From Acutalibacteraceae bacterium (GTDB lineage Bacteria > Bacillota > Clostridia > Oscillospirales > Acutalibacteraceae), in contig JAZRQQ010000120.1 of assembly GCA_045649935.1 (NCBI GenBank), forward strand, positions 1 to 24,000: 24,000 bases of DNA, written 5' to 3'. This document shows, piece by piece, positions 804 through 20,552 of the stretch (within the stretch, counting starts at the first letter, position 1; each line of letters starts with the position of its first letter). The notes under the pieces are model-generated. The model saw only the letters and a program-made list of their open reading frames with translations. It was not told the origin of the DNA and searched no databases. The position numbers and the translations under genes are program-made.

Positions 804-849
804 TGGAGCTGGAAACGTGACTCGAACACGCGACCTGCGCATTACGAAT
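804..849 (-). repeat. attL: 46-bp duplicate of the tRNA-Thr 3' portion (anticodon loop to CCA)
   Basis: 804-849 is identical base for base to 9792-9837. The flanks diverge immediately on both sides. Confidence 0.95.
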
Positions 850-950
850 ACTAATTTCTATGAATTCGCGTTGTTTCATAAAGTGTCATTTTCTCCCGTC
901 ATATCTATATTTTCGGCACTTTTATCTTTCACGAGCTTTCACCAAATGTA

Positions 951-1005
951 AACGCCAAAACACCGAAACAAACGCCAAATAAACGCCAAGAAAAATTGTG
1001 CAAAA
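951..1005. repeat. Left-end arm-type repeats (AACGCCAA x3, TTGTGCAAAA)
   Basis: AACGCCAA at 951, 971 and 982. CGCCAAATAAACGCCAA 973-989 is identical to 9705-9721 at the other end. TTGTGCAAAA 996-1005 is the reverse complement of 9691-9700. Confidence 0.6.
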
Positions 1006-1108
1006 TTGTGAAAAATTTGGAATTTTTTGCAAAGGTAAAAATGCCTCTTCCCCTTATGCCGTCTAAGTTTATCGTTATTTTTATCTCTCAGAATGTAAAA
1101 AAGTTTTT

Positions 1109-1990
1109 TTAACAGCATTTTTGCTCTCTTTCGTTTCTTATTGCAACCACCTCAACAGAAGAAAGACCGCTGTTTTTGAAGCACCCTGCAGAATACTTAT
1201 AACTCACAGAATCATCATAGTGTTCTTCTTTCATTATCGCCTTGCGTAGCCGCCAATCTCTTCTTAAATCTCTTACCGCATTAGTTCTGAGTGTATATAC
1301 ATAATTCACAGATACATTCAAATCTTTCGCTGTATCAGAAAATGATTTATTCTCAAAATAAAAATCCGTTATTGCTTTCTTTTTCTGAGGGCTTAATTTA
1401 TCAACAGCTTTGTAAAGGCAACTCTGATAATACTCTTGTTCTTTATCTTCAGCTATATTACCCTCAATATCTTCATCTGATGGTATTGTTTCTTCCATAG
1501 ACAGCCCATCTGCATCTTTTATAGGCTCGTCAAATGATACCATCTTCATCCCTATAATTGCTATCTTTAAGTTTTCTAAGGTTGTTTGTGATATATTCAA
1601 TGCCCTCATATATTCGCTTTCATCAGGCTTTCTGCCATGTTTTTGAAAGTAATCTTGTTTGAATTGATAATATCTTCTGATTAACTCTTTGAACTCTGAG
1701 GGCATCTTTACAGGTACAGAAGAGCTGAAAGAATAAGCAGAGAGCCTCCATTTAAGTATTTTGCCGAAATAGGTTATGAATTTGACGTTTATATCCGTCT
1801 TGTAATTTTGTACAGCTTCATCAATAGCAATATAAGCCTCTTGCATTAAATCGTCTATTTCTGCAGTGTTTGAGTATTGAAGAGCAGTTTTGTATATAAA
1901 ACCTCTGTTTTGATTGTACAGTTGAGCCATATACTTGCTTTTATCCACCGGGCAACTTTTTATTTTTGTAATAAGCTCTTCATTAGTCAT
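1109..1990 (-). CDS. Sigma-70 family RNA polymerase sigma factor-like protein
   Basis: 293-aa ORF with RBS GAGGTGA upstream. It has a region-2-like segment 'DDLMQEAYIAIDEAVQNY' and a region-4-like HTH 'SFSDTAKDLNVSVNYVYTLRTNAVRDLRR', plus a ~45-aa C-terminal tail ending KCC. Confidence 0.7.
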   Translation of the reverse strand: MTNEELITKIKSCPVDKSKYMAQLYNQNRGFIYKTALQYSNTAEIDDLMQEAYIAIDEAVQNYKTDINVKFITYFGKILKWRLSAYSFSSSVPVKMPSEFKELIRRYYQFKQDYFQKHGRKPDESEYMRALNISQTTLENLKIAIIGMKMVSFDEPIKDADGLSMEETIPSDEDIEGNIAEDKEQEYYQSCLYKAVDKLSPQKKKAITDFYFENKSFSDTAKDLNVSVNYVYTLRTNAVRDLRRDWRLRKAIMKEEHYDDSVSYKYSAGCFKNSGLSSVEVVAIRNEREQKCC

Positions 1991-2069
1991 ATTTCATCAC
2001 CTCATACCCCCATTTTAAAGCCTAAATCTCACAAAGTAAATATCAAAGTCCAAAAATACGGACACCAAA

Positions 2070-2104
2070 AGACCGCTAACCTCACAAAAAAAGGAAAGCG
2101 GTCT
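2070..2104 (-). terminator. Hairpin directly after the integrase stop
   Basis: AGACCGCT 2070-2077 / AGCGGTCT 2097-2104 with a 19-nt loop. T-runs follow on both strands. The large loop lowers confidence. Confidence 0.4.
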
Positions 2105-2110
2105 GTTTTT

Positions 2111-3493
2111 TTATACTGTTTGTTTTCTGCCAAGAGTTAAAATATCTGCTATTGCTTCAGCTGCAGCTTCATCAGCCGACTTTATAGCGTGGGCATATAT
2201 TTTTGTGGTTGTGCTTGCATTGGTATGGCCGAGGCGGTGAGCAACCGTTGTAAGTGGAGTACCTGCGGCAATCTGCAGAGTGGCGTTTGTGTGTCTTAAT
2301 CCGTGTATGCTTATGCCCTCAATATTATGCTTCTGTTTAAATCTTCTGAATTTGCTTGTTAATGATGAGGGATTCAACGGCTCACCGTTCCAAGAGGTAA
2401 AGAGCCTGTTTGAATTTATCCACTTATCACCGAGCCTAAGCCTTTGTCCTGCTTGCCAGGTTCTCTGCTCTTTCAGTAAGTCAATAACTGCATCTGATAT
2501 TTTAAATGCTCTTTGCGAGCCTGCCGTTTTGGTTTCATCTTCGAAAACGCCCATTTCAGGCAGATATAAGGAATTACGGCGCACGTGTATGATTTTATTT
2601 TCAAGGTCTATATCAGACCATTCCAAGCCTAACAGTTCACCACGTCTTAAGCCTGTAAACATTAACAGTTCTATCATTACCCGGAACTGTACGCCCTCAT
2701 CCTGCAGACAATCAATTAAATTCTTTGCCTGCTCTTCATCAAGATACTTCGGCTCAGGCTTGCCGACTTTGGGCGGCTTTACTCTGTCGCAGGGATTAGA
2801 AAATATAATCTGCCATTGTACGGCCGTAGTCAGCATTGATGAAATGACATTGTGATAATAATGCACTGTTGATGAAGCTAATGTCTTGCCCTCATCGACA
2901 ATAGCAAACACATTCTCTATCGGCTCACACAAAGCACTACATATTGCGAGAGCTGTTTTTTCTGTTACATTCTGACCGTTTACAGCTGCAGATACTGTTC
3001 TTTCACCTATTCCGCCACATTCGGCAATACTGCTGAATGTAAGTTTTTTACGCTTTATGAGGGCACGCAGGTCACAACAGGCTTTATACTTCATATCCTC
3101 TCTGATACCCTTTTCAGCAAGGTTCTTATAAAAAGAGAGAAGGTGCTGAGGCTGTATTCTTTCGAGCTTCATATGTCCTATTGCGGCGTTTATTCTCGGC
3201 ATCATTGATTTATACCGCTTGTATGTGGTTGCCCTCAGATGCTCTTTTGCATAATCGTTAAACCATTGTTCGGCAAAATCAGCAAACTTAATAGATCCGT
3301 CAAGATAAGTACCGTTTCTCACCCTTTCTTCAAAGAGTACCGCTTGCCTTTTTACCTCTTTTTCTGCCTGTTTCAAAGTCATTGATGAGGGCGGCTTCCA
3401 GGTCATATATCGGCGTATCTGTTTACCGTTTATATCATAACCGGCTGAAACGGTTATTTTATACGTGTCATTCCGCTTCGTTATCGTTGGCAT
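2111..3493 (-). CDS. int: Tyrosine-type site-specific integrase
   Basis: Catalytic signature: 'TGLRRGELLGLEW' (Arg), 'HGLRHTNAT' (HxxR), 'HRLGHTNASTTTKIYAH' (His...Tyr). The N-terminus 'MPTITKRNDTYKITV' is typical of an arm-binding domain. The start is moved to the sixth codon, Met 3493; the alternative start is 3508. Confidence 0.9.
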   Translation of the reverse strand: MPTITKRNDTYKITVSAGYDINGKQIRRYMTWKPPSSMTLKQAEKEVKRQAVLFEERVRNGTYLDGSIKFADFAEQWFNDYAKEHLRATTYKRYKSMMPRINAAIGHMKLERIQPQHLLSFYKNLAEKGIREDMKYKACCDLRALIKRKKLTFSSIAECGGIGERTVSAAVNGQNVTEKTALAICSALCEPIENVFAIVDEGKTLASSTVHYYHNVISSMLTTAVQWQIIFSNPCDRVKPPKVGKPEPKYLDEEQAKNLIDCLQDEGVQFRVMIELLMFTGLRRGELLGLEWSDIDLENKIIHVRRNSLYLPEMGVFEDETKTAGSQRAFKISDAVIDLLKEQRTWQAGQRLRLGDKWINSNRLFTSWNGEPLNPSSLTSKFRRFKQKHNIEGISIHGLRHTNATLQIAAGTPLTTVAHRLGHTNASTTTKIYAHAIKSADEAAAEAIADILTLGRKQTV

Positions 3494-4370
3494 TTGAATC
3501 ACCTGCAATATTTACAAGATTTAAAAAACTCATCTTAACTTTTTCCTTTAAAGGATATAATTCTTCTTTTTCTTTGTCCGTTAAGTTAAAGTGTATGGTA
3601 GGATAGTCCGCTTTAAGACCATCTTTCGCCATAAGTTCACTTTTAAAGGAATCATAATCAAATATGAACTTTAATTTTTCTTCAGCTTTATCCCAATTTT
3701 TATAAACAGTCTCTGTGAAATTATCAATAATCATTTTTAAGTTTTCGGTTGCTTCGAAATATTGCAATCTAAAAGTTGGATATTTTTCAATTCTTGCGAT
3801 GGTCTCCATTGGAGATATATCGTTAAGCAATGCTTCATCAAATTTATTATAGATAGCTGTTGTGCGTTGTTCCATTTCATCGATATAACTCAAAATGAAA
3901 CAAACGGCATCAAAAAAACTATCTGAACTTAGAAAGTAATTAACAACTGATAGCTTTTTTAAAATCCACTCTCTTCTTTCATAAAACATTTCTTCTGTTA
4001 TAAAAAAATCATCAAATTCACAATCTTCTGCTTTTTCACTCAAAGGTTCTGCTATCGAATGTAATTTTTCAACAGCCTGTTCATTTAATCCTGTGTAATC
4101 TTCAATTTCGCGTATTATTTTGCCCTCTTCAGTAGCCATAGGCGTTTTATATTCGGATATGCCCAACAAATAATCTGCTGATACACCAAAATATCTTGCA
4201 TATTTAACAACATACTCTGCTGTAACCTCTCTTTTTCCGTTGTAATGTTTTGTTACCAAAGAAGTATCGCATTCTAATCGTCTTGCTATTTCTTCTCGTG
4301 TTTTGGTATCAATCAATTTTCTTAATCTTTCTAAATTTACACCGTTTTTTTCTATATTTTTGTCACTCAT
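3468..4370 (-). CDS. XRE-family HTH regulator with ~220-aa unknown acidic C-terminal domain (candidate master repressor)
   Basis: N-terminal HTH 'REEIARRLECDTSLVTKHYNGKREVTAEYVVKYARYFGVSADYLLG'. RBS GGGTGG. The gene is divergent from the HTH-xis-rep module and overlaps the integrase start, so co-transcription is likely. It is very AT-rich relative to its neighbours. Confidence 0.75.
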   Translation of the reverse strand: MSDKNIEKNGVNLERLRKLIDTKTREEIARRLECDTSLVTKHYNGKREVTAEYVVKYARYFGVSADYLLGISEYKTPMATEEGKIIREIEDYTGLNEQAVEKLHSIAEPLSEKAEDCEFDDFFITEEMFYERREWILKKLSVVNYFLSSDSFFDAVCFILSYIDEMEQRTTAIYNKFDEALLNDISPMETIARIEKYPTFRLQYFEATENLKMIIDNFTETVYKNWDKAEEKLKFIFDYDSFKSELMAKDGLKADYPTIHFNLTDKEKEELYPLKEKVKMSFLNLVNIAGDSNANDNEAE

Positions 4371-4395
4371 ATAGATTTAAACCACCCTTTCAATC

Positions 4396-4511
4396 AGTTT
4401 TGTCACAACTTTATCGTCAAAAGGACAAAACTCTTGATTTTTAGTTTTGTCACATATATAATTAAATTGTGACACATACAACAACACAAGTATATCATTA
4501 TGTGTTGTTGT
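4396..4511. promoter_or_regulatory. Divergent switch region with repeated operators
   Basis: AGTTTTGTCACA direct repeat at 4396-4407 and 4443-4454. Inverted partners are GACAAAACT 4424-4432 and TGTGACA 4468-4474. There is an 11-bp inverted repeat ACAACAACACA 4478-4488 / TGTGTTGTTGT 4501-4511. The region lies between divergent starts 4370 (-) and 4543 (+). Confidence 0.6.
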
Positions 4512-4542
4512 TGTCAATATTAAATTTAAGAGGTGTAAAACA

Positions 4543-4728
4543 ATGAATAATCAGGAAATCAGAATCAAAGCAAAAGAAAAGGGCGTTCGTCTTTGGCAAA
4601 TCGCTGAAAAACTTGGCGTGTGCGATATGACATTAACAAGAAAACTCCGTCACGAACTGCCCGTAGACGAAAAAACAAAGATACTTGCCATAATTGACAG
4701 TATCTCTGCAAACAGAAAGGCGGTTTAA
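4543..4728 (+). CDS. Small HTH DNA-binding protein (Cro-like candidate)
   Basis: 61 aa with RBS AAGAGGTG. HTH-like segment 'VRLWQIAEKLGVCDMTLTRKLR'. It is the first gene of the rightward module. Confidence 0.6.
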   Translation: MNNQEIRIKAKEKGVRLWQIAEKLGVCDMTLTRKLRHELPVDEKTKILAIIDSISANRKAV

Positions 4729-4729
4729 T

Positions 4730-4963
4730 ATGTCTGTGCCACGAATGAGAACTCTCCCGGAAGCATTTGCAGAGCTGAAAAAGGCTGACCCTGCAACGGC
4801 TTACACTCTGAGGGCATTAAGAGCAGCAGTAAATAAGGGTGAAATACCCGTTGTAAGAGTGGGCAATAAAAGGCTTATAAACCTTGACCGACTCTTTGAA
4901 ATACTGAATACGCCCTCATTAAGTCAAAAAGAAACTCATGAGGGCATAAGAAAAGTAATCTGA
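4730..4963 (+). CDS. xis: Excisionase-family / MerR-like HTH protein
   Basis: The start is moved to ATG 4730 (RBS AAAGG), 1 nt after the upstream stop. 'YTLRALRAAVNKGEIPVVRVGNKRLINLDRLFEIL' resembles excisionase-family DNA-binding domains common in Firmicutes elements. Confidence 0.6.
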   Translation: MSVPRMRTLPEAFAELKKADPATAYTLRALRAAVNKGEIPVVRVGNKRLINLDRLFEILNTPSLSQKETHEGIRKVI

Positions 4964-4979
4964 AATAAAAAAACGCCCC

Positions 4980-5077
4980 ACATAAGCTGCAACTTATGTA
5001 AGGCACGCCCTAAGGCGGTAAGCATGTGAGCATACATAGTATAACACAATAAAGTCTGTATGTCAAATTTACCGCCT
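4980..5077. promoter_or_regulatory. Hairpin cluster upstream of rep (candidate terminator plus origin/nick region)
   Basis: ACATAAG-ctgcaa-CTTATGT at 4980-4999. A 9-bp inverted repeat AGGCGGTAA 5013-5021 / TTACCGCCT 5069-5077 encloses CATACA / TGTATG. Confidence 0.35.
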
Positions 5078-5109
5078 AAATATGAGTATTCAGACGGAGA
5101 TTTGATGAA

Positions 5110-5844
5110 ATGCGAAAAAGAATAAAGAAAAGGACTTTTTCAGGCGTTGTATGTGAACAGGAAATATACAGCATATCTGACAGAGCAAAGAACGATATAA
5201 CAGCAAAGCCACGCTTAAGATTTAATACCGAAGAAGAGCGAGAAAAGCATAAATTAGGCATATCGAGACGTAACCACGCCCGTCTTGTCAATGAAAACTT
5301 TTCTCCCGGCTCTTTATACAGCACGCTTACCTTCGATAATGAAAACGAGGTACATACCTTTGACGAAGCAAAGCATATCAGAGATTTGTTTGTACGTCGA
5401 TTAAAGTATGCTTGCCCTGATGCCGTTATCTTCATATACCTGGGCAGAGGTAAAAATACACGGCGTATTCATGTACATATGCTTTCTGAGGGCGTATCTG
5501 CAGAGATAATCAATAAACAGTGGACATATGGCTCTATTGTTTCCGTTGAGAATCTGAGAGAGCATAACTTTTATAACGGTGTCGATTATGGCTGTGACTA
5601 TACAGGCCTTGCAAATTATCTCTTTGACCATTGGACACCTGAACAGGGCGGTCACCGATGGAAGCACACACGCAACGCAAGAACGCCCGAAAAGGAAGAT
5701 ATAGCCGAAGTTAAGCGCATATACAGCGAGAAAAGCCCACCGCAAGCCCCTAAAGGTTATAAATTGGTCGAAATCAAGTGTACCAAATACGGATATTTAT
5801 ACTTCAAGTATGTAAAAGAAGTGCAGAAAGTCACGCCCTCATAA
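5110..5844 (+). CDS. rep: HUH-superfamily rolling-circle replication initiator / relaxase-like protein
   Basis: Motif-1-like 'LYSTLTFD', HUH 'RRIHVHMLSEG' and a Tyr-rich motif-3 candidate 'DYTGLANYLFDH', in canonical order and spacing. Confidence 0.6.
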   Translation: MRKRIKKRTFSGVVCEQEIYSISDRAKNDITAKPRLRFNTEEEREKHKLGISRRNHARLVNENFSPGSLYSTLTFDNENEVHTFDEAKHIRDLFVRRLKYACPDAVIFIYLGRGKNTRRIHVHMLSEGVSAEIINKQWTYGSIVSVENLREHNFYNGVDYGCDYTGLANYLFDHWTPEQGGHRWKHTRNARTPEKEDIAEVKRIYSEKSPPQAPKGYKLVEIKCTKYGYLYFKYVKEVQKVTPS

Positions 5845-5954
5845 CCCTTAAAAGAATAATTCGAGCTGATTTTTATATCAGCTTTTACAAGACTTGAAAA
5901 TGTGTAAAGTTTTAGAACGAAACACAGCACAGAAAGTAAAAAGAGGTAAATACT

Positions 5955-6659
5955 ATGTATGATTTAATATCAGTTAATTATGATAATGACAGGCCGACAG
6001 TATCAGCAAGAGAATTACATCAGTTTTTGAATGTAAAAACATCATTTACAGACTGGTTTCCGAGAATGTGTGAATACGGTTTTGAAGAAGGAAAAGACTT
6101 TTACTCATTTTTGAGTGAAAGTACAGGCGGCAGACCTAAAACAGAGTATCAGCTGACAATTGAAATGTCAAAAGAGATTTGTATGCTGCAGAGAAGCCCT
6201 GAGGGCAAACAGGCAAGACAGTATTTTATTGAGCTTGAAAAGAAGTGGAACTCTCCCGAATCGGTTATGAGCAGAGCTTTGCAATTTGCGCAAAAACAGC
6301 TTGATTCTGTAAAAGCAGTTAATACTGCCCTCATAGAGGAAAACACCGTTATGAAACCAAAAGCTGAATATTATGACAACGTTATTGCTCACGGTAAGTC
6401 AGTTAATTTCACGGATGCCGCAAAGCTGATAGGTGTACCGAGAAACAGACTTATCAATGAACTTATGCAAGCAGGCTATACCTATCGTGACGGTTACGGA
6501 GATATAAGAGCATATCAGCGCAGTATTGACCAGGGATTATGTAAGCATAAGCAGTTTTATAGTGACAGAAACGGCCACAGCGGTATTCAGGTACTTATAA
6601 CACCAAAAGGCATAGAAAAGTTTATACAGCTTATGAGGGCGAATGTAGAATCGAACTGA
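5955..6659 (+). CDS. Phage antirepressor (AntA N-terminal domain + KilAC C-terminal domain)
   Basis: N-terminus 'TVSARELHQFLNVKTSFTDWFPRMCEYGFEEGKDF' is AntA-like. C-terminus 'AEYYDNVIAHGKSVNFTDAAKLIGVPRNRLINELMQAGY' is KilAC-like. RBS AGAGG. Confidence 0.8.
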   Translation: MYDLISVNYDNDRPTVSARELHQFLNVKTSFTDWFPRMCEYGFEEGKDFYSFLSESTGGRPKTEYQLTIEMSKEICMLQRSPEGKQARQYFIELEKKWNSPESVMSRALQFAQKQLDSVKAVNTALIEENTVMKPKAEYYDNVIAHGKSVNFTDAAKLIGVPRNRLINELMQAGYTYRDGYGDIRAYQRSIDQGLCKHKQFYSDRNGHSGIQVLITPKGIEKFIQLMRANVESN

Positions 6660-7059
6660 GAGCGAACAGAGAGAAAATGCCCTTTTTCACCTGTTCAATA
6701 AGCACTAATCCGGACACGATAAAAAGAGAGCATAAAAGAGGGCGTGAAAGCCCTTTAAACGGCTCTTAACAGTATTAAGTTTAGGACATATATGCCCTCA
6801 TAAAGTATCAAAAACAACCTGACAAAACCTGACATCTCTCACGCGTGCGCGCGCGAGGAAAGCGGATTGAACTCCGAGAAAACATCAAAGCGAACCGAGA
6901 ACGAAGCGAGAGAAAATTGCAAATAAGTTCATTATAAAAACATTCAAAAGGTCTATGAGGGCAATTTTGACAAAGAAAAGAGCAAACAAATGCTCCTTGT
7001 CTGCTCTTATATGTCCTGTGGTTGGTTAATATGGTGTTTTTCGCTTTGGTCGGTGATCT
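6660..7059. other. 400-bp non-coding centre of the element (candidate origin / cis-acting region)
   Basis: No ORF in the track. Tandem AACCTGACA at 6816-6824 and 6826-6834. Alternating tract cacgcgtgcgcgcgcg at 6840-6855. Direct repeats GAGAGAAAAT at 6669 and 6908. Inverted repeats AGGACATATA 6783-6792 / TATATGTCCT 7008-7017 and GCCCTCAT 6794 / ATGAGGGC 6955. Confidence 0.35.
6971..7008 (-). terminator. Terminator of the 7060-7413 gene
   Basis: On the minus strand: AAGAGCAGACAA-ggagca-TTGTTTGCTCTT, a 12-bp stem with one G-U pair, followed by ttctttg. Confidence 0.6.
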
Positions 7060-7413
7060 TTATTTAGCTGCTGATTCTTTCAAAATTTCATTAAGTCTCA
7101 GCTGTTCTTCAGGCTTCAAATCTCCGATACACTCAATATGTTCTCTGAGCCACTGTTTTATCTTCTCAATAACTGCCGGTACATCTTCTCCTCTGCTCTC
7201 GTAGCCCTCAGGACCTTCAATTCGGCTCATAAGAGATAAATATTGCCATTTAAAGTCTGACATCATTTTTATATTCAAAAGCGGTACAGCACCAGGATAA
7301 TCTTTCTCCACTCTTGCACCCTTATCACACGCATTTGGTGAAACATAGCCTATGATATCGTATTCTTTGCCGTTAATAGTGTATTTTTCGTTTTTTGCCT
7401 TGTTTTCAGTCAT
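7060..7413 (-). CDS. Hypothetical protein (117 aa)
   Basis: Clean ORF with RBS AAGGAGA upstream of ATG 7413. No family recognised. Confidence 0.6.
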   Translation of the reverse strand: MTENKAKNEKYTINGKEYDIIGYVSPNACDKGARVEKDYPGAVPLLNIKMMSDFKWQYLSLMSRIEGPEGYESRGEDVPAVIEKIKQWLREHIECIGDLKPEEQLRLNEILKESAAK

Positions 7414-7432
7414 TTAATATTATCTCCTTTTC

Positions 7433-7461
7433 TTGACAAAAAAGAGAGGGCATTATATAAT
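7433..7461 (+). promoter_or_regulatory. Perfect consensus sigma-70 promoter, antisense to the 7539-7814 gene
   Basis: TTGACA 7433-7438, 17-nt spacer, TATAAT 7456-7461 on the + strand. It is embedded in the 9-bp inverted repeat AAGAGAGGG 7442-7450 / CCCTCTCTT 7469-7477, which on the minus strand is followed by a T-run (terminator-like). Confidence 0.5.
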
Positions 7462-7538
7462 GAATTTACCCTCTCTTGACAGGGTTTGATTATGCTCTTG
7501 TATTTTGCTTTGGTCGGCGTTGATACAAGGGCTTTTCT

Positions 7539-7814
7539 TTATGCCACGCTGAAACGTCGTGTTTCGGTCTGTTTACTGTACTGTTCATATAAATCTCCGT
7601 GCGTCTTTTTGAAAGCTGTTGAGTCAAAACGGCTGCTTGTAACTGTCTTGTAGCGGATTTTGAAGATATCAACGGTCATTTCTTCTTTGCCCTCAGAGGT
7701 CATATGAGCCTTTAATTCATCCTTAATGGCTTCTGCCTCAGCTGTTGCTTCATCAATGAGGGCTTGCAGTTCCTTAAGCTCTCTGATTTTGGTTGTGAGT
7801 TCGTTTGTTGTCAT
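7539..7814 (-). CDS. Hypothetical coiled-coil protein (91 aa) common in Firmicutes phage/ICE modules
   Basis: RBS AAGGAG 8 nt upstream. N-terminal heptad-like 'ELTTKIRELKELQALIDEATAEAEAIKDELK'. No function known to me. Confidence 0.6.
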   Translation of the reverse strand: MTTNELTTKIRELKELQALIDEATAEAEAIKDELKAHMTSEGKEEMTVDIFKIRYKTVTSSRFDSTAFKKTHGDLYEQYSKQTETRRFSVA

Positions 7815-7990
7815 TGGTTTTATACTCCTTTGCTTTATATTCGGTTAAGTGGTGAGGGGCTTTAAGTTATCTACCGTCACATTGAGGGGTTTCTATCAGG
7901 CTTATCCGTTCTCACTCTTATATTGCACTCTTGGTTCAGCTCTCGCTTACTTCGTCTGCCTTTCCTTAACTCTGTGATTACATTATATAC

Positions 7991-8088
7991 CTTGTACAAG
8001 TATAAATCAATAGACAAGATAAACAAACTTGTACAAGTATATTTGTGCATTTTTATACTTGACCAAGTATTGATGTTTATGCTATAAT
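7991..8088. promoter_or_regulatory. Operator palindromes plus divergent promoters
   Basis: CTTGTACAAGTATA at 7991-8004 and 8028-8041 (core palindrome TTGTACAA), with a related palindrome ATACTTGacCAAGTAT at 8055-8070. The + promoter is TTGACC 8059-8064, 18 nt, tgcTATAAT 8081-8088. On the minus strand, TTGATT-17-TATAAT spans the first palindrome. Confidence 0.55.
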
Positions 8089-8150
8089 GAATACACTGGG
8101 AATAGAATATATTTAAAAATATCCACCAACATTAGAAATGAGGTATAAAA

Positions 8151-8375
8151 ATGGCTGAAAATACAGGAAAAGCAAGCACAAGAGCTAAAAATAAATATAA
8201 TACCGCCAATTATGATAATCTTAGAATTATCGTCCCCAAGGGCAAAAAAGACATCATCAGAGAATACGCCGCAAGAAAAGGTGAAAGTATAAATGGCTTT
8301 GTAAACCGTGCTATCGATGAAGCTATGCAGGATGAGGGCGAAAAAGAAGCAAAATGCCCTCATAGCGCAACATAA
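8151..8375 (+). CDS. Ribbon-helix-helix (CopG/Arc-type) DNA-binding protein
   Basis: 'LRIIVPKGKKDIIREYAARKGESINGFVNRAIDEAM' fits a beta-strand/helix/helix RHH pattern. RBS GAGGT. Confidence 0.65.
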   Translation: MAENTGKASTRAKNKYNTANYDNLRIIVPKGKKDIIREYAARKGESINGFVNRAIDEAMQDEGEKEAKCPHSAT

Positions 8376-8426
8376 AATATCGTAAAGCAACATAAAATAA
8401 TGCAAAGCAACGTAAAATATCGTAAA
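8367..8426 (+). repeat. Three tandem 20-bp repeats (GCAACATAAAATATCGTAAA-like)
   Basis: Units at 8367-8386, 8387-8406 and 8407-8426. Units 1 and 3 differ at 1 position; unit 2 differs at 4. The array starts in the last codons of the RHH gene and ends 25 bp before a strong promoter. Confidence 0.75.
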
Positions 8427-8451
8427 TATACACAAATTTTCACAAAGCGTG

Positions 8452-8479
8452 TTGACATCGTGTAATTTTCGGATATACT
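8452..8479 (+). promoter_or_regulatory. Promoter for the 8684-9289 gene, giving a ~200-nt leader
   Basis: TTGACA 8452-8457, 16 nt, TATACT 8474-8479. The leader contains an 11-bp hairpin TAGGCACTTCG-ttttt-CGGAGTGCCTA (8635-8661) just before RBS GGAG. Confidence 0.55.
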
Positions 8480-8683
8480 AAAAGTGAAGAGAAAGCCACC
8501 GCTAAATCTTCTCAGTGCCAGTGAAACGTTATGCCTTGCCGAGGTGGTATGCGTTGAGGCTCTTATAGGGTTTGTACATTAAGCCTGTTCTCGGCTATGA
8601 CTTAAAGTCAAAAAAATGTACGGTTTTACAAAGAGTAGGCACTTCGTTTTTCGGAGTGCCTATAATGTTATGATGGAGTTAAA

Positions 8684-9289
8684 ATGAAAGATATAAAAGA
8701 ATGTGCAAAGTTATATAAAACACTGCTAAATAAAGATTACATATTTACTCTTGAGCAGGGAATTAAGTTTAAATTATTCTTTAAAATGGGCAATTTTCAC
8801 CATCTGCTTGGTTTAGGGAAATTAAAAGATATCGAAAATCTAAATTTAAAAAGAAACAAAGCGGAGGATATTTATAAGAAGATATTGAAAGGTGACATAA
8901 AGCCCGATCTAATAGAAAAAAGCTCTTTTTATCAATTAATTAAAGACAGAATTGAAAACTTCCAAGGCATAACGGACCTTCTTGACGCCAATAAATGCAA
9001 AATACTTATCGACTTTGATAAGGAGCTTCTTGAATCAACTAATTTAACTAACACAAAATATATACTCTATAAACATAAAAACGATGGCTATCTTCATCTT
9101 ACTTTGGGCGATATTGGCAAAGGAATTTATCCTGAAACATTTTTCTTTGAAAACAGTAAAAGATACATAAGTGAACAGACGTTATTAGACATTATTGATA
9201 TTGAAATTTTAGACAGAAAAAATATAAAGAAAAGAGCTGTTGAAGTTTATAAAGATATACTCCAAAATGAAAGTTCTTCTGTTGGGTAA
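8684..9289 (+). CDS. Putative PBECR-like (Barnase/EndoU/ColicinE5-D/RelE-fold) nuclease; otherwise hypothetical
   Basis: 201 aa and very AT-rich. The motif 'GNFHHLLGLGKL' after a short N-terminal beta-rich segment resembles my memory of PBECR4-type domains; this is unverified. RBS GGAG. The gene is followed by a strong terminator. Confidence 0.35.
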   Translation: MKDIKECAKLYKTLLNKDYIFTLEQGIKFKLFFKMGNFHHLLGLGKLKDIENLNLKRNKAEDIYKKILKGDIKPDLIEKSSFYQLIKDRIENFQGITDLLDANKCKILIDFDKELLESTNLTNTKYILYKHKNDGYLHLTLGDIGKGIYPETFFFENSKRYISEQTLLDIIDIEILDRKNIKKRAVEVYKDILQNESSSVG

Positions 9290-9304
9290 TTATATTTTTA
9301 TTTT

Positions 9305-9336
9305 ATGAGGGCAAATTCGCCCTCATTTTCTTTTTT
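9305..9336 (+). terminator. Rho-independent terminator built from an inverted pair of the island 8-mer
   Basis: ATGAGGGC 9305-9312 / aaattc / GCCCTCAT 9319-9326, followed by tttcttttttat. Confidence 0.85.
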
Positions 9337-9400
9337 ATACCCTCAGTTATATTGGAACGCAAAATTGTAGAATAATAAACAATATAAGGAGATGATACAA

Positions 9401-9583
9401 ATGGCTAAAAAACAAAAATACACGGTAACATTTCACCTTCAAAAGTCTGACGGTGAGATAGTTCCTTTTGAGAAATTGAGCGACGAGGAAAAAGAAGAGG
9501 CTTTTGCAGGTATGAGAAAAAACTTAAGTGAAACGCTGAGCCGTTATTTCGGACTTCATCCGGAAGAATATGAAAAGTTATAA
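9401..9583 (+). CDS. Small acidic hypothetical protein (60 aa)
   Basis: The start is moved to ATG 9401, with RBS AAGGAG 9386-9391. No family recognised. Confidence 0.5.
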   Translation: MAKKQKYTVTFHLQKSDGEIVPFEKLSDEEKEEAFAGMRKNLSETLSRYFGLHPEEYEKL

Positions 9584-9690
9584 AACATCAGCTGCTTGTC
9601 GGCAAAAAATATAATCACAATATTATAACAAAAGACCTCTCTCCCGGACAAAAGGAAAGAGATCCTTTTTTTCATATAAAAACACCTGAA

Positions 9691-9721
9691 TTTTGCACAA
9701 TAAGCGCCAAATAAACGCCAA
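9691..9721. repeat. Right-end arm-type repeats
   Basis: TTTTGCACAA 9691-9700 is the inverted copy of 996-1005. CGCCAAATAAACGCCAA 9705-9721 is a direct copy of 973-989. Confidence 0.6.
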
Positions 9722-9791
9722 ATCACATTTATGAGGGCAAATCATAGAAAAGAGAAAAACCCCTGAAGCCTTATGCTACAAGGGTTTGTGT

Positions 9792-9867
9792 ATGGAGCTG
9801 GAAACGTGACTCGAACACGCGACCTGCGCATTACGAATGCGCTGCTCTACCAACTGAGCTATTCCAG
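9792..9867 (-). tRNA. tRNA-Thr: tRNA-Thr (anticodon CGU), CCA encoded; its 3' 46 nt form attR
   Basis: Hand-folded cloverleaf: acceptor GCTGGAA/TTCCAGC, D arm GCTC/GAGC, anticodon stem GCGCA/TGCGC with loop TTCGTAA, T arm GCGTG/CACGT with loop TTCGAGT, discriminator T, then CCA. Total 76 nt. Confidence 0.93.
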
Positions 9868-9888
9868 CATATTGACTTGTGCTTTGAC

Positions 9889-9918
9889 AATTATACTAAA
9901 AGAGATAGCTTTTATCAA
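9889..9918 (-). promoter_or_regulatory. Candidate tRNA-Thr promoter
   Basis: On the minus strand: TTGATA (9918-9913), 18 nt, TATAAT (9894-9889). The -10 element ends about 21 nt upstream of the tRNA 5' end. Confidence 0.45.
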
Positions 9919-10076
9919 GTCTTTTAATAAAAAAATTAAAAATATATTTCTTCAGAAAATTGGCTTTTCTGAAAGCAAAATACAAATATACGGACTTTCA
10001 CTATGCTATACTTAAGACACAAACGAAACACAGATTAACTGATCATTTCTCTTTTTTCACTCCACACTCATATATG

Positions 10077-10127
10077 TAAAAACAGGAAGCCGTGGGCAGC
10101 ACTCCGCCCGTAAGCTTCCTGTTTTTC
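10077..10127 (-). terminator. Bidirectional hairpin terminator after the helicase-loader gene
   Basis: AACAGGAAGC 10081-10090 / GCTTCCTGTT 10114-10123, extended by flanking A and T runs. It begins 11 nt past the stop at 10138. Confidence 0.7.
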
Positions 10128-10137
10128 ATTTTGTCTT

Positions 10138-11112
10138 TTATTTAAGCTGTCTTATGTCCTTACCGCAGAAGCGTACGGGATAACAGCTTCCCATAATTCT
10201 TGAAGCAATTCTCTGAGTGTATTTCTGCTCGAGCTCATGTATTTCAAGATTAGTGCTGATAATCGTGGGTAATGAACGGAGTATTCTTGTGTTAATAATA
10301 TTGTGAAGCTCACTGATTGTAAACTGTGTCACAAACTCTACGCCTAAGTCATCAATAATAAGAAGGTCACAGCTGAGAACATCATCCTTTATGCTTTCAT
10401 CAGCAGGCAGTCTTCCGAAATGCTCTCTTTCAAGCTTATCCATAATATTCTGAATACTGTCATAATAAACATCGTATCCCTTTTCAAGCACCTTGTTTGC
10501 AATCGCAAGGGAAAGATGAGTCTTACCAAGACCGGTTTTGCCTACCATTATAATACCCTTTGAATTAAGAGAAAAATCTTCTGCATAAGCCTTACAGAAA
10601 TTATATACCTGATCCATATGCTCCTTCTGATTAACCTTAAGCTCTGCATCAGTTATATCGGGATAATACTGAGTTCTGAAATTATCAAAGGTACATTTTT
10701 TTATAGGTGAATTTGAATCAAGATTTTCTCTTGCCACATCACGTATAAGCTTTTTATAACAATGACAGTAGTAGCCGTCGTGAGAGCCTGTATCCTTACA
10801 TACAATACAGTTATACTTTACTTCGAGATAATCCTCAGGCAGACCGACACTTTTAAGCAGTGCTTTTCTTTTATCCTGTGCAGCAAGATTTTTTACAGCA
10901 AGAGAACGGACATATTCGGCAACATCACCGCCAAGACCTACAGCCTTTATCACATCGGCACCGCACTGTGCCATTTCTCTTTCAACCTCAAGAAGCTCGG
11001 GACATTTGACAACAGCTTCACCGTGACGGATTTCAGCCTCCATTTCAGCCTTCTGTCTTCTTTCGTCAAGAATTTCCTTGGCTTTCTGATATACACTTCT
11101 CTTATATGCCAT
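10138..11112 (-). CDS. DnaC/DnaI-like replicative helicase loader (IstB-like AAA+ ATPase)
   Basis: Walker A 'GKTGLGKTHL', Walker B 'LLIIDDLG' and a Cys-rich N-terminal Zn-like motif 'CIVCKDTGSHDGYYCHC'. The start is moved to ATG 11112 (RBS GGTGGTGA), overlapping the upstream gene end. Confidence 0.8.
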   Translation of the reverse strand: MAYKRSVYQKAKEILDERRQKAEMEAEIRHGEAVVKCPELLEVEREMAQCGADVIKAVGLGGDVAEYVRSLAVKNLAAQDKRKALLKSVGLPEDYLEVKYNCIVCKDTGSHDGYYCHCYKKLIRDVARENLDSNSPIKKCTFDNFRTQYYPDITDAELKVNQKEHMDQVYNFCKAYAEDFSLNSKGIIMVGKTGLGKTHLSLAIANKVLEKGYDVYYDSIQNIMDKLEREHFGRLPADESIKDDVLSCDLLIIDDLGVEFVTQFTISELHNIINTRILRSLPTIISTNLEIHELEQKYTQRIASRIMGSCYPVRFCGKDIRQLK

Positions 11113-12151
11113 TATTGTCACCACCGTTTTTCGTATAAGTCAGATTAAAAGCTTTCTGCATATATGCATCAATATCATAGGATGCATCACTCTTTTTCTT
11201 TTCTGTTTCCTTATCCTTGGAAGCATACTTCTTTTCCTTCTCTGCTTCCCATTTTATTCTCTCGTTCTGAATATCACTTACATTCTTTACGCCCTTTTCG
11301 TGCCAGGAACGGATTATTTTATCCATATACGGCATACTCATCTTGCCTGTACGGTCAATGCTTTCTTCATAGGCGTAATAAATAATTTCTTCGTTATAGC
11401 CGTATTCCTTGACCCAGGCCGTCAGATACTTTCTCTGCTTTTCTGTAGGATTGCGGTTAGTGATTTCCGTAAGACTGCGAAGCTTTTCCCATGTCTCGTC
11501 AACAATATTATGCTCTTCGATATATTCCATAGCACCCTCAAGAGTGTCTATTTCAAGCTCACTCCATCTTTTGCCTATGCGGGATATAGCTGTGTAGCTT
11601 GTCTTCTTCTGAGAAACGGCATATTCAATTGCCATAAGAATTACCTCAGTGGGAAGACCGTAGCTGTCGTGCATCATAAGAAGCACCGACTGACCGTCAT
11701 AACCCACAGTCTTTCCCAGAGCCGTCTGTGCCTCCTGGAAGAGAGCAGCAATTTCTTCACTTTCCTTAAGTCTTGCGGCAATCTGATCGTAAGTAGGTCT
11801 TGAGATAGGAATATCTGTGACCTTTTTGGTACGTACCTCCGGCTCAGATGTTTCTTCAGGCTCTTTATTTTTTGCAAAGCTCTCTGCTGTTACGGGAGCC
11901 TTTACCTCACCGTCTTTGAGAAGAATCCCTCTTTCGTTCCAGAAAATCATTGCATCATTCACATCGTCCTTATCAACAGAAAGAGCATCGGAAATCCTTT
12001 CACTGCAAAGGTCTGCTTCACCGTTATGTCTGAGCATATATAAAAGGACCTTCAGCTGAACAACGCTGGCAAGTCTTATATTATCGTCAACCAAAGCATT
12101 GGGAACAGGGAAAATTCCCGTAAATGCCATCGGATTAATTTTATATTCCAT
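11102..12151 (-). CDS. DnaD-domain replication initiation protein (Firmicutes DnaB/DnaD type)
   Basis: Two DnaD-like C-terminal repeats ('PTEVILMAIEYAV...', 'EKQRKYLTAWVKEYGYNEEIIYYAYEESI...YMDKIIRSWHEKGV'). The start is moved to ATG 12151 (RBS AAAGGTG). The gene is coupled to the helicase loader. Confidence 0.75.
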   Translation of the reverse strand: MEYKINPMAFTGIFPVPNALVDDNIRLASVVQLKVLLYMLRHNGEADLCSERISDALSVDKDDVNDAMIFWNERGILLKDGEVKAPVTAESFAKNKEPEETSEPEVRTKKVTDIPISRPTYDQIAARLKESEEIAALFQEAQTALGKTVGYDGQSVLLMMHDSYGLPTEVILMAIEYAVSQKKTSYTAISRIGKRWSELEIDTLEGAMEYIEEHNIVDETWEKLRSLTEITNRNPTEKQRKYLTAWVKEYGYNEEIIYYAYEESIDRTGKMSMPYMDKIIRSWHEKGVKNVSDIQNERIKWEAEKEKKYASKDKETEKKKSDASYDIDAYMQKAFNLTYTKNGGDNNGI

Positions 12152-12210
12152 ATTTTTCACCTTTCGGGCAAAACAGGGCAATCGCCAAAGCCATTGCCCT
12201 TTTCTGATTA

Positions 12211-13542
12211 TTAATATTTACCTAAATATTTGTCAATCTCCCACTGAGAAACTCTTGTGCTGTATTCACGCCATTCTTCTTCCTTGGCAGCAATATACTT
12301 GCTCCATACGTGCTCGCCTACTGCTTCTTTTGCAAAGGGGCTCTTTTTAAATTCTCTGAGAGCATCGTATAAGGTCTTGGGAAGAGAATGAATATCAGCC
12401 TCTCTTCTTTCGTCCTTGGTAAGCTTATAGATATTTGAATCCTCAGGAGAGGGAGGTGTAAGCTTTCTTTCCACACCGTCAAGACCTGCCTGAAGAATAG
12501 CAGCCATAACAAGATAGGGGTTAGCTGCAGGGTCAGGATTACGAAGCTCAATTCTTGTGCCTGTACCTCTTGCTGTAGGAATACGGATAAGAGGACTTCT
12601 GTTCTTTGCTGACCAGGCAATATATACGGGAGCTTCATAGCCGGGAACAAGTCTCTTATAAGAGTTGACTATAGGATTGGTAAGAACAGTAATAGACTTG
12701 ATATGCTCCATAACACCGGCGATAAAGTTATATGCAACCTCACTCAATCCTCTTTCGTCATTCTCGTCACAGAAAGCATTTTTGTTTCCGTTGAAAAGAG
12801 AAATGTTGATATGCATACCTGAGCCGCAGATACCGTAAATAGGCTTGGGCATAAAGGTAGCATAAAGGCCGTGCTGATTTGCAAGATTCTTTACAACATA
12901 CTTGAAGGTCATTACGTTATCTGCAGTTTTAAGCACTTCATCATATCTGAAATCAATTTCGTGCTGTGCAGGAGCATTTTCGTGATGTGAAGCTTCAACC
13001 TCAAAGCCCATCTTTTCAAGGCAGAGGCAGATTTCTCTGCGGCAGCCTTCACCTCTGTCAACGGGACCTAAATCAAAATATCCGCCCATATCGTAGCTTC
13101 TTGTTGTAGGCTTATCGTGTTCATCAAGATGGAAAAGGAAAAACTCACATTCGGGACCGATGTTGCAGGTATATCCCATATCCGCTGCTCTTTTTATTGC
13201 ACGGCGGAGCACATAACGGGGGTCACCCTCAAAGGGAGTTCCGTCAGAGTTGTAAACGTCACAGATAAGTCTTGCTGTCTTGCCTGTATTTTCATCCCAG
13301 GGAAGAATAACGAAAGAGTCAAGGTCAGGATGAAGACACATATCACTTTCTTCTATTCTTACAAAGCCGTCTATGGATGAACCGTCAAACATACAGCGGT
13401 TGTCAAGTGCCTTCTGAAGCTGACTTGTAGTTATAGAAACACTTTTAAGAGTACCGAGAATATCAGTAAACTGCAGATCAATAAAGTTTACCTTCTCTTC
13501 TTTTGTAATACGGATTATATCTTCCTTTGTATAAACGCTCAT
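12211..13542 (-). CDS. glnA: Glutamine synthetase, type I
   Basis: 443 aa. It has 'FDGSSIDGF', 'GPECEFFLF', '[13 protein letters not shown]', '[17 protein letters not shown]' and 'NRSPLIRIP', which are classical GS-I motifs. Confidence 0.93.
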
Positions 13543-13637
13543 TTGACTACCTCTTTCATTAACAGGAAATAATAACTGATATTTGAACTAATATACCATA
13601 TTATATAATTATTTGTCAACGGAAAACACTGCAGACA

Positions 13638-13672
13638 AATAAAAAAACACCTATCCGTACGGACAGGTGTTT
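13638..13672 (-). terminator. Terminator of the 13687-14199 gene
   Basis: AAACACCTaTCCG / ta / CGGAcAGGTGTTT at 13645-13672 (one mismatch), followed on the minus strand by TTTTTTT. Confidence 0.75.
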
Positions 13673-13686
13673 AACTGTTTACTTTA

Positions 13687-14199
13687 TCAGAAATCAACAG
13701 CGCCTTCAAAAATCTTTGCGAAGTATTCGAAGATCTGATTGAATCTTGCGAAAATAGAAGCAATTAATGCCCAGAAGGATACGTTTTCCTTGATTTCCTC
13801 TTCGTGGAATACTGCTACAAAAACAACTTCGTCACCGTTAGCAACACCAGCGGGAAGCTTGAGTGTGCCTGAGTAACCCTGATTGCCTGTGGGCTCCCAC
13901 TTACCTTCTTTTACCTTGTATTCTTCCCAGTACTTGAAGGTGTACTTTGTTGTTTCGGTTGATTCCTTAGCGGGAGTTTCGGGATATCCGTAGTATTTGA
14001 AATACTCTACAAGGTTCTCGCTTGCATCAATCTTAACAACGTTCTTGGGTTCACCGTTTTCGATGTCATCTGCATCCCAATAGAACTTAACTGTAACTAA
14101 GGGAGCTTCTGTTTCTGTTGAATCTTCTGCAAATGCCATTACGCTTACTGCTGAGAACATAAGAATAACAGCAAGAATGACTGATAATACTTTTTTCAT
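13687..14199 (-). CDS. Secreted hypothetical protein (signal peptide)
   Basis: N-terminus 'MKKVLSVILAVILMFSAVSVMAFA' is signal-peptide-like. RBS GGAGGAAA. No family recognised. Confidence 0.6.
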   Translation of the reverse strand: MKKVLSVILAVILMFSAVSVMAFAEDSTETEAPLVTVKFYWDADDIENGEPKNVVKIDASENLVEYFKYYGYPETPAKESTETTKYTFKYWEEYKVKEGKWEPTGNQGYSGTLKLPAGVANGDEVVFVAVFHEEEIKENVSFWALIASIFARFNQIFEYFAKIFEGAVDF

Positions 14200-14421
14200 A
14201 TTAATTTCCTCCAGATTCTGAATTAATATATGTCTAAAGACATTTATACAAGAAGATTATAAATGAAAATTCACTGTTTGTCAATATTTAAAACCATATT
14301 TGAACTTTATTTTACTTATTTTACCCTACAAATATTCTGTTAACTTTTTGTTCAACTTTACGTATCAAAGTTACATAACATCAGAGATACAATTTTCCAA
14401 AAGGACAAAAGAGATGATAAA

Positions 14422-15258: not shown

Positions 15259-15276
15259 ACAACCCGATAAAAATAT

Positions 15277-15310
15277 AAACGGCTGTCAGATGACAGCCGT
15301 TTGATTTTTA
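15277..15310. terminator. Bidirectional terminator between convergent genes
   Basis: AAACGGCTGTC-agat-GACAGCCGTTT at 15277-15302, an 11-bp stem with A and T runs on either side. Confidence 0.8.
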
Positions 15311-15311
15311 A

Positions 15312-16250: not shown

Positions 16251-16370
16251 AACTCAATCTCCTTTATATTAATATATACTATTATACACGTAAAAGCATT
16301 ACTTATAATTTACTCGGTTTTCGTCTTTTTGTCAATAGAAAGGAAAAATAATATGGTAAATATTTCGTGA

Positions 16371-16423
16371 ATAAAAGAAAAGCCCGCAGACTGCACTTAC
16401 CTGAGTAAGGCATAATCTGCGGG
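16371..16423 (-). terminator. Terminator of the TRAP operon
   Basis: CCCGCAGA 16383-16390 / TCTGCGGG 16416-16423, with an inner helix CTTAC/GTAAG. A T-rich run follows on the minus strand. Confidence 0.6.
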
Positions 16424-16436
16424 AAATATTTTTTAG

Positions 16437-18413: not shown

Positions 18414-18442
18414 AATTGCCTCCTTTATTTTACCAAAATTTT

Positions 18443-18477
18443 CAGAAAAAACAGGCTGCAGTTGCTTCGACTGCAGC
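18443..18477 (-). terminator. Intercistronic hairpin/attenuator between the binding-protein and permease genes
   Basis: GGCTGCAGT 18453-18461 / ACTGCAGCC 18469-18477, followed on the minus strand by tgttttttct. Confidence 0.55.
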
Positions 18478-18501
18478 CGATAATTCAGATGTAAAGGTCA
18501 A

Positions 18502-20513: not shown

Positions 20514-20552
20514 AATCCTTGAAAATCAATAATTATACTATAAGCCTGAACG

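Follow-up and report, generated by a model that had tools for sequence, protein, structure and literature searches.

The 24,000-nucleotide stretch of DNA analysed here (the window) comes from an Acutalibacteraceae bacterium of the Oscillospirales (GenBank assembly GCA_045649935.1, contig JAZRQQ010000120.1) and carries a small integrative island that is saturated, on both strands, with a single heptamer, GCCCTCA/TGAGGGC. This heptamer is a real DNA-level recognition word under selection, and not a by-product of protein coding or of composition. The observation is confirmed and is broader than a single island. The element is one of a family of small islands of gut Oscillospirales that carry integrase and sigma-factor genes, and each member is saturated on both strands with a heptamer specific to its lineage. 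The reading that we favour, and to which we give not quite an even chance, is that a helicase-nuclease of the AddAB/RecBCD type, which enters DNA at its ends, reads these words as Chi-like signals.

An exact word and its conservation

The island is 8,989 bp long, is inserted in the 3′ end of tRNA-Thr(CGT) and is bounded by 46-nt direct repeats. A first-pass annotation of the window, made from the sequence alone, listed 27 copies of the heptamer, 13 on the plus and 14 on the minus strand, and every listed position proved to be an exact match. Our search of both strands of the window finds these 27 sites, all within 1386-9738, and none in 1-1385 or 9739-24000. This bears out the claim that the word is absent outside the island, for a flank of only 15 kb. 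GCCCTCA is the commonest 7-mer of the island, with sites as follows (the sign gives the strand on which GCCCTCA is read):

1386..3392, nine sites in the sigma and integrase genes: 1386-, 1602+, 1697-, 2315+, 2693+, 2888+, 3058-, 3231+, 3386-
4809..6962, ten sites: 4809-, 4912+, 4939-, 5487-, 5835+, 6200-, 6327+, 6634-, 6794+, 6956-
7204..9738, eight sites: 7204+, 7689+, 7757-, 8333-, 8356+, 9306-, 9319+, 9732-

The density is one site per 336 bp when both strands are counted, or one per ~670 bp per strand, and dinucleotide-preserving shuffles of the window yield a mean of just 1.61 sites and a maximum of 6. As previously reported, 18 of the 27 sites extend to the 8-mer GCCCTCAT; the remaining nine have a G at position +8. 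The word can thus be written as GCCCTCA[T/G], preceded mostly by Y (T or C), or on the G-rich strand as 5′-[A/C]TGAGGGC[A/G]-3′. The 21 one-mismatch variants of the heptamer are not enriched (12 occurrences in the island and 27 in the flanks). Given this lack of near-matches, the word is exact and sharply defined, unlike a degenerate binding motif. Only primer sequences came up when the literature was searched for the heptamer.

The first-pass annotation also argued that selection on proteins does not explain the sites, and proposed a codon-preserving shuffle as a check. Both the argument and the check hold up. The 22 sites that lie inside open reading frames (ORFs) occur in all three frames, 9 in sense and 13 in antisense, and the rare codons AGG, ATA and CTC are used at word sites, so coding constraint is no explanation. 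When the proteins and the codon pool of each gene are kept, 2000 shuffles yield 2.4 coding sites on average and never more than 8, compared with the 22 that are observed. Along the island the orientation of the sites tends to alternate (20 switches out of 26, p=0.007). This alternation is confined to the TGAGGGC lineage and is no general feature of word-dense islands.

Further islands were found with the replication initiator (Rep) of the element, in a scan that covered one genome per species, and with homologues of its integrase. The Rep scan returned five near-identical islands (L001-L005) in different metagenome-assembled genomes of Acutalibacteraceae/Clostridia. Each has 24-28 word sites, nearly all of them inside the island with 2-3 scattered in the flanks, and three of the five islands sit at the same tRNA-Thr locus as that of the window, in host flanks that are 76-84% identical. 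The integrase homologues led to L164/L165, L166, L168/L169, L254, L255 and L334. Altogether the same word saturates islands at 12 or more other loci; some of the hosts have 52% GC, and some of the islands have another replication gene. For example, L164/L165 have an integrase that is 61% identical, host flanks of 52-59% GC and a DUF6291 replication gene in place of Rep. Wherever flanks are present the word sites end at the island borders (the short contigs L254, L255 and L334 have little or no flank). The same-word islands span hosts of 38-54% GC, the word follows the integrase clade, and a sigma-70-family gene is found in 11 of the 13 islands examined.

The sites are also conserved. In alignments with islands that are 76-89% identical at the DNA level, 17-19 of 22 window sites (77-86%) are intact, compared with 26-52% of other 7-mers, i.e. 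the word sites are ~1.5-3 times better conserved than the 7-mers that surround them. Seven of the nine sites in 1386-3392 are intact in L003, which is 76% identical. Lost sites are often offset by a gain a few base pairs away (4809/4818, 6794/6806, 6956/6991, 7845/7852). Since losses are replaced by nearby gains, this turnover appears to be the signature of selection for local density and not for exact position. Conservation in homologous islands and a count in related elements had both been suggested as checks in the first-pass annotation, and both come out in favour of the word.

In many assemblies the island is a separate contig of unit length (8.8-9.1 kb) that ends in the attachment (att) repeat. 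The 8,809-bp contig L334 starts and ends in this repeat with a 14-bp terminal overlap, a form that would be compatible with either an excised circle or an assembly break at the repeat.

Gene content, hairpins and sister lineages

The annotated features of the island are listed below.

804..849: attL, a 46-nt direct repeat identical to the 3′ part of tRNA-Thr, with a 100% identical copy at 9793-9838 (spacing 8989 bp)
1109..1990, minus strand: sigma-70-family protein with regions 2 and 4, hallmark gene of the island family; 3 word sites
2111..3508, minus strand: tyrosine integrase with an inserted helix-turn-helix (HTH); 6 word sites
3468..4370, minus strand: XRE-family regulator, a 30% GC module; no word sites, alleles unrelated between sister islands
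4543..4728, plus strand: small Cro-like HTH protein
4694..4963, plus strand: Xis-like protein, kept in all word-carrying islands; 3 word sites
5110..5844, plus strand: HUH-type replication initiator (HVH motif), 244 aa, PF23343, phrog_3584; 2 word sites
5955..6659, plus strand: AntA/KilAC antirepressor; 3 word sites
7060..7413, minus strand: orf117, no assigned function; 1 word site
7539..7814, minus strand: orf91; 2 word sites
8151..8375, plus strand: RHH-like small protein; 2 word sites
8684..9289, plus strand: PBECR4 nuclease-like cargo gene, 31% GC; no word sites
9793..9838: attR, a 46-nt direct repeat inside tRNA-Thr(CGT), the tRNA lying at 9793-9868 on the minus strand

Virion genes are absent among the annotated proteins. 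The gene set is that of a satellite of the phage-inducible kind (PICI/PICMI-like): an integrase, a repressor switch and its own replication initiator. The best conserved protein is orf91, which is 90-93% identical even where the other proteins are 55-87% identical. It weakly matches Sipho_Gp157 and the C-terminal region of a RecE-like PHROG, which makes a role at DNA ends conceivable; a single-sequence AlphaFold model of this protein (pTM 0.39) was too weak for use. A megablast of the island against phage and plasmid collections gave no match, exact-protein look-ups with the proteins of the window returned no record, and the integrase has no relatives among viral contigs.

The only long word-free stretches of the island, 3393-4808 and 8363-9305, coincide with the AT-rich XRE and PBECR4 modules (30-31% GC). 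As XRE alleles are unrelated between islands that are otherwise 90% identical, this suggests that these modules are often replaced from a word-free pool.

All three inverted pairs of the word fold into hairpins with 8-bp stems, as the first-pass annotation had predicted:

4911..4946, plus strand: hairpin at the end of xis, with the word as its stem (GCCCTCAT...ATGAGGGC)
8332..8363, plus strand: hairpin at the end of the RHH gene, with the word as its stem (ATGAGGGC...GCCCTCAT)
9305..9326, plus strand: canonical intrinsic terminator downstream of PBECR4, with the word as its stem

A scan of viral contigs for the pattern ATGAGGGC-N3-12-GCCCTCAT gave at least 120 chance matches, and none of the matches listed was word-dense. 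Directly after the RHH gene, beside the second hairpin, there are 3-4 tandem 20-bp repeats (GCAACATAAAATATCGTAAA, 8367-8446). These are iteron-like and may mark a replication origin.

A metagenome scan with an alignment of the integrase returned mostly distant integrases, yet it uncovered sister lineages with words of their own. In these sister islands (integrases ~50% identical) other GC-rich heptamers saturate both strands, at densities of 1.3-3.8 sites per kb. The sister islands have in common with the window island a core of integrase, sigma factor, XRE regulator and usually a Rep of the same superfamily. The word GAGCGGG is found in L261-L268, L270, L271, L273, L274 and L318. There are 27 GAGCGGG sites in 7.5 kb of L270 (13+/14-) compared with 1 in 14 kb of flank, and a codon shuffle of L270 gives 3.3 sites where 19 are observed in genes. 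GAGCGGT has 13 sites in 4.3 kb of L290, and GAGCTTG has 34 in ~9 kb of L258.

Word pairs likewise form the stems of terminator-like hairpins in the sister islands. Each GAGCGGG island has at least three copies of a ~45-nt nested hairpin, GAGCGGGC-AATTGCATTCGACTGCAAAA-GCCCGCTC, followed by a T-run (e.g. L270 4910-4950, 6445-6485 and 11409-11450; L261 2238, 3751 and 8711; L264 11411). It resembles a terminator cassette that is based on the word and has been used repeatedly.

Recurrence of the same density with different words in sister lineages bears on the explanation that the word lacks a function today and is a relic in base composition, left by a former host or by biased mutation or repair. 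The first-pass annotation had raised such a previous-host signature, and the lack of enrichment in the present host flanks would fit it. We strongly disfavour this account, to the point of finding it hardly credible. Beside the recurrence of other words, it is opposed by the superior conservation and nearby replacement of sites described above and by the absence of a build-up of decayed one-mismatch copies.

Could a protein of the island read the word? The Rep, sigma, XRE and RHH proteins were proposed as readers in the first-pass annotation, and these have been swapped, replaced or lost among islands with the same word. Between islands whose word is identical, the sigma factors are only 31-43% identical and the XRE alleles 28-44%. 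Rep has given way to unrelated proteins in some same-word islands. Furthermore, the Rep of the window is 73% identical to that of L006, whose word is GAAGCGG, but 68% identical to that of L009, which carries TGAGGGC. The RHH protein is missing from most same-word islands. Because they are exchanged while the word is kept, sigma, XRE and Rep are unlikely readers.

The exchange also counts against the word as a promoter or operator for the sigma factor or repressor of the island, in a silencing network that would resemble the stoperators of Cluster A mycobacteriophages. Stoperators are 24-36 copies of a 13-bp asymmetric word, mostly intergenic and oriented with transcription; they bind the immunity repressor and vary along with it. 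Like the island word they are asymmetric, lineage-specific and dispersed over a mobile genome. Here, in contrast, the repressor alleles change while the word stays constant, and the sites within ORFs lie in both orientations, which together reject this class. A promoter or operator role could draw on the presence of the sigma gene in most islands, and on the fact that the genes likeliest to be expressed in the integrated state (XRE and PBECR4) lack the word in the TGAGGGC lineage. However, the XRE genes of GAGCGGG islands do hold sites, and the examined phages with one-stranded words (see below) lack a homologous sigma factor, with one weak exception (L227). We consider this role very improbable. 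Two further classes were rejected. An iteron or origin repeat does not fit a word that is spread over 8.3 kb and not clustered at rep, and a function at the RNA level is ruled out by sites on both strands within genes.

The integrase is different: among the island proteins, its clade alone follows the word. Integrases of the TGAGGGC group are 54-85% identical to one another and those of the GAGCGGG group 66-98%, compared with 44-52% across the two groups. This raises the possibility that the word is an arm-type (or other) site of the tyrosine integrase, with copies that would assemble or sequester the enzyme along the element. In GAGCGGG islands three copies lie within 60 bp directly downstream of int, beside att (in L270, 11385+, 11409+ and 11439-), and the island of the window has a copy at 9732, 60 bp from attR. 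On the other hand, the int-adjacent cluster contains the terminator-like nested hairpin that recurs elsewhere in the island. Arm sites leave unexplained both the 20-30 copies in coding regions and the strict one-strand pattern of the phages, which have the same words and flanking preference and lack this integrase within ±10 kb of Rep. The match of clades is equally explained by a shared host range. Finally, the integrase of L170 and L171 is identical, yet these loci have no dense word, just a sparse GAGCGGG set (~8 sites), and this word is also strand-biased in the flanking host DNA. We regard the integrase as a minor rival and an improbable reader.

L170 and L171, which occupy the same host site, also differ in clustered iterons beside a VapE-type primase gene (TTAGGGGCA x4 at 6336-6370 in L170; TGGTGGGG x8 at 6326-6650 in L171). 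These are probably origin repeats and not dispersed words.

One-stranded words in phages and the Chi-like reading

The HUH Rep of the island is shared with tailed phages of Oscillospirales, and its family belongs to tailed phages such as nd12 and the C. perfringens phages PhiS63 and phiSM101 (annotated as replication initiation protein). In these phage loci the words lie almost wholly on the Rep strand. For GAGCGGG the count is 19+/0- over the full 32.8 kb of nd12 and 16-26+/0- in dozens of contigs from IMG/VR, for GAAGCGG 18+/0- in L008, for GCTGGAG(G) up to 16+/0- and for GCTGGAGG 9+/0-, counts that are 4-6 times the codon-shuffle nulls. Two of the L008 sites are in minus-strand genes. Counts of this type are unreliable in GC-rich phages, where our greedy ORF picker takes spurious antisense ORFs, and only the L008 site inside a Pfam-confirmed integrase rests on an independently verified minus-strand gene.

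The word of the window is found in phage-like fragments as well, as TGAGGGCA, 12+/1- in L009 and 6+/0- in L336. Both fragments carry Rep, SSB, a ParB-N protein and VRR-NUC; the ParB-like protein of L009 has no relatives among viral contigs. The island of the window shares Rep and orf63 with L009. Similarly, the Reps of GAGCGGG islands are closest (72% identical) to those of GAGCGGG phages, and a GAGCGGG[C/T] flanking preference is common to islands and phages. TGAGGGC is not enriched in the Ruminococcus bromii prophage L335, a candidate phage of the same host clade.

Some single phages among the IMG/VR contigs L174-L195 carry three one-stranded words at once, GAGCGGG, GAAGCGG and GCTGGAGG. In L188, for example, the counts are 16+/1-, 17+/0- and 9+/0-, respectively. 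The three words could serve several hosts or several nucleases.

Because phages keep the words on one strand while islands mix orientations within single genes, the strand polarity points to a directional reader that phages and islands would have in common, most simply a nuclease signal of the Chi type. A non-directional binder would not give 26+/0- in phages, RNA polymerase is excluded as a reader by the mix of sense and antisense sites, and a replisome or FtsK/SpoIIIE would give a switch of polarity and not fine-scale mixing.

The favoured mechanism would work as follows. A helicase-nuclease enters at a free DNA end and reads the word in one orientation, upon which the enzyme would stop degrading the DNA and promote RecA-dependent recombination. 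A phage-type HUH Rep would replicate the island by a rolling-circle or sigma mode, yielding linear tails and concatemers. As the island lacks structural genes, it probably travels in the capsids of a helper phage. If a 9-kb element is cut or packaged at permuted positions, any position can become an end that faces either way, which would select for many sites in both orientations. Phages with defined ends would need the word on one strand only. In this scheme we infer the identity of the reader, the mode of replication, the packaging and the dependence on a helper.

Several lines of evidence are consistent with this Chi-like reading. An exact word with inactive variants is the pattern expected of Chi, and 27 exact sites beside unenriched one-mismatch variants are what is seen. 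The expected strand polarity is found in the related phages, while the island itself uses both orientations. Moreover, three words of the island and phage family equal or contain known Chi sequences. GAAGCGG is the Chi of S. aureus; AGCGG, the Chi of B. subtilis, is part of GAGCGGG, GAGCGGT and GAAGCGG alike; and GCTGGAGG matches the H. influenzae form.

There are precedents for both the phages and the replicon. Chi is the commonest octamer, and one-stranded, in the phages LLS, MD8 and P1, where it occurs once per 1.3-1.9 kb; these phages lack recombination and anti-RecBCD modules of their own (PMC12315714). In such Chi-rich phages (E. coli LLS and P1, Pseudomonas MD8; Bobay 2013, Zheng 2025, PMC12315714), as here, a G-rich word is the top k-mer, far above the codon expectation, and as in the phage relatives found here it is almost wholly one-stranded. 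The island differs in having a 4-6 times higher density that is equal on the two strands. Its carrier is a 9-kb integrative element without structural genes, the host flanks are not enriched, and the word is only a candidate for the Chi of the host. Rolling-circle plasmids build high-molecular-weight DNA only when they bear Chi, and an assay based on this defined GAAGCGG in S. aureus, AGCGG in B. subtilis, GCGCGTG in L. lactis and G(G/C)TGGAGG in H. influenzae (bioRxiv 10.1101/2021.07.08.451572). These Chi-protected plasmids (Dabert 1992; Biswas 1995; El Karoui 1998; Halpern 2007, per bioRxiv 10.1101/2021.07.08.451572) resemble the island as HUH Rep replicons, and their words are 5-8 nt long, like those of the present family, several of which equal or contain GAAGCGG/AGCGG. 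The plasmids differ in having single engineered sites, each active in one direction only. In the literature that we searched, no natural element is described as saturated along its whole length on both strands, and searches on GAGCGGG with Chi and on Chi with satellites found nothing relevant.

A number of observations weigh against the Chi-like reading. TGAGGGC resembles no characterised Chi. The persistence of one word across hosts of widely differing GC content (38-54%), tracking the integrase clade, would fit an element-borne reader as well. A rolling-circle replicon alone would need one orientation only; the presence of both might be explained by permuted ends or by packaging of concatemers, by analogy with PICMI satellites. 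The analyses produced no AddAB gene, helper phage or evidence of packaging.

The host flanks also speak against it. Known Chi words are usually over-represented in the host and co-oriented with replication. The pooled flanks of same-word islands (52-62 kb) show no enrichment of TGAGGGC (8-9 sites where ~6 are expected, 6:3 between strands), nor is GAGCGGG enriched beside the GAGCGGG islands. The strong local repeats in two of the flanks (AGCGACAAGC-type in L164, CCTTGCCC/CAAGGGGC-type in L165) inflated the pooled k-mer statistics. In addition, the flank of the window (9870-24000) has another strand-biased word, TGACGG(T), at 13-/2+. TGACGGT itself is 7/7 on the minus strand, twice within plus-strand genes, and the flanks of related loci have the same bias. 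It could be the host's own polar word, or a coding bias.

These results weaken the Chi-like reading without refuting it, because S. aureus Chi occurs just once per 8.4 kb (bioRxiv 10.1101/2021.07.08.451572) and the flanks are low-powered. The absence of sites from 15 kb of window flank is weak evidence that the host lacks the word, as only ~1.8 would be expected at that density. The pooled-flank density of ~1 per 7 kb is near that of S. aureus Chi and indistinguishable from chance. In the chromosomal flanks of L170/L171, GAGCGGG (5/1) and AGCGG (22/7) favour one strand whichever way the genes run, and the resident small island at these loci has GAGCGGG in both, alternating orientations. The first-pass annotation had called the word specific to the element and not to the host. 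In the window and in related loci the sites are indeed confined to the element, though the word itself may or may not be foreign to the host.

The genes of the window flank are core genes of a spore-forming Clostridia host, among them a DnaI/DnaC-like loader, a DnaD-domain protein, GlnA and YpeB. In the left flank there is a match above the gathering score to the Gut-1 RNA (RF01706; 169-243, plus strand), upstream of a four-helix-bundle-like ORF (355-726).

A serious rival, which we think possible though unlikely, places the reader in the mobile elements themselves. A directional machine, most likely that of an L009-type helper phage, would recognise the word, and the islands would be satellites that copy the word of their helper on both strands so as to be recognised. 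Such a machine might be a terminase or packaging motor, a nuclease of the phage, or a system that marks self against non-self. The word is restricted to the elements, and absent from host flanks, in two independent word systems, and it follows the integrase clade across hosts that differ in GC content. Pairs of islands and phages share both a word and the nearest Rep, the window island and L009 sharing orf63 too, and small satellites packaged as concatemers are known (PICMI, PMC10803314). Yet Rep is the only protein common to islands and phages of one word, and it fails to co-vary with the word. Among terminases and phage systems, none is known that reads heptamers dispersed on one strand, several of the words are identical or similar to the host Chi of other Firmicutes, and at L170/L171 the word is strand-biased in host DNA. 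In its boldest form, which we hold to be doubtful, the heptamers would not be host Chi at all but the cis half of a new lineage-specific self-recognition system of gut Clostridia phages and their satellites. A phage-encoded directional machine would read a 7-8-nt word, and the satellites would hijack it with copies on both strands every ~300 bp.

Known dispersed words and significance

The analogy with DNA-uptake sequences, drawn in the first-pass annotation, does not hold, because the host flanks are not enriched (0 sites in the 15 kb of window flank and no enrichment in the pooled flanks). The uptake words of Neisseria (DUS) and Haemophilus (USS) are host words that occur genome-wide at ~1 per kb. 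They share with the island word its exactness, its presence on both strands and its frequent pairing in terminator hairpins. In contrast, the carrier here is a mobile element in non-competent Clostridia, in a host whose flanks lack the word.

Another comparison is with KOPS and SRS, the chromosome-wide polar words of FtsK and SpoIIIE that switch orientation at dif. They too are G-rich 7-8-mers that are read directionally, but a mixed orientation inside a 9-kb element would be senseless for such translocases.

In overall design the islands are closest to PICMI (PMC10803314) and PICI satellites, which likewise are ~9 kb in size, with an integrase, a repressor switch and a replication initiator of their own, and without capsid genes. 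They differ in that a sigma-factor gene is the hallmark of the present family, that saturation with a word is unreported for those satellites, and that no helper phage, terS, capsid-remodelling gene or evidence of packaging came to light here. Indirect hints of packaging by a helper are the Rep and word shared with L009-type phages and the unit-length contigs of 8.8-9.1 kb that end in the att repeat.

Should the words be Chi-like, TGAGGGC, GAGCGGG, GAGCGGT and GAGCTTG would be the first candidate Chi sequences for uncultured gut Oscillospirales. Small mobile islands would have been shaped close to saturation by an end-processing nuclease of the host, with word sites that use rare codons and even form the stems of terminators. 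This would bear on the means by which mobile elements avoid degradation. It may also bear on their escape from CRISPR spacer acquisition and from the generation of Argonaute guides, two processes that Chi is believed to restrict. If the reader is instead borne by the elements, the words would be categorically new, a phage-satellite recognition code of a new kind. The contrast between two-strand islands and one-strand phages could also provide a simple signature for finding such elements and for reading the structure of their ends.

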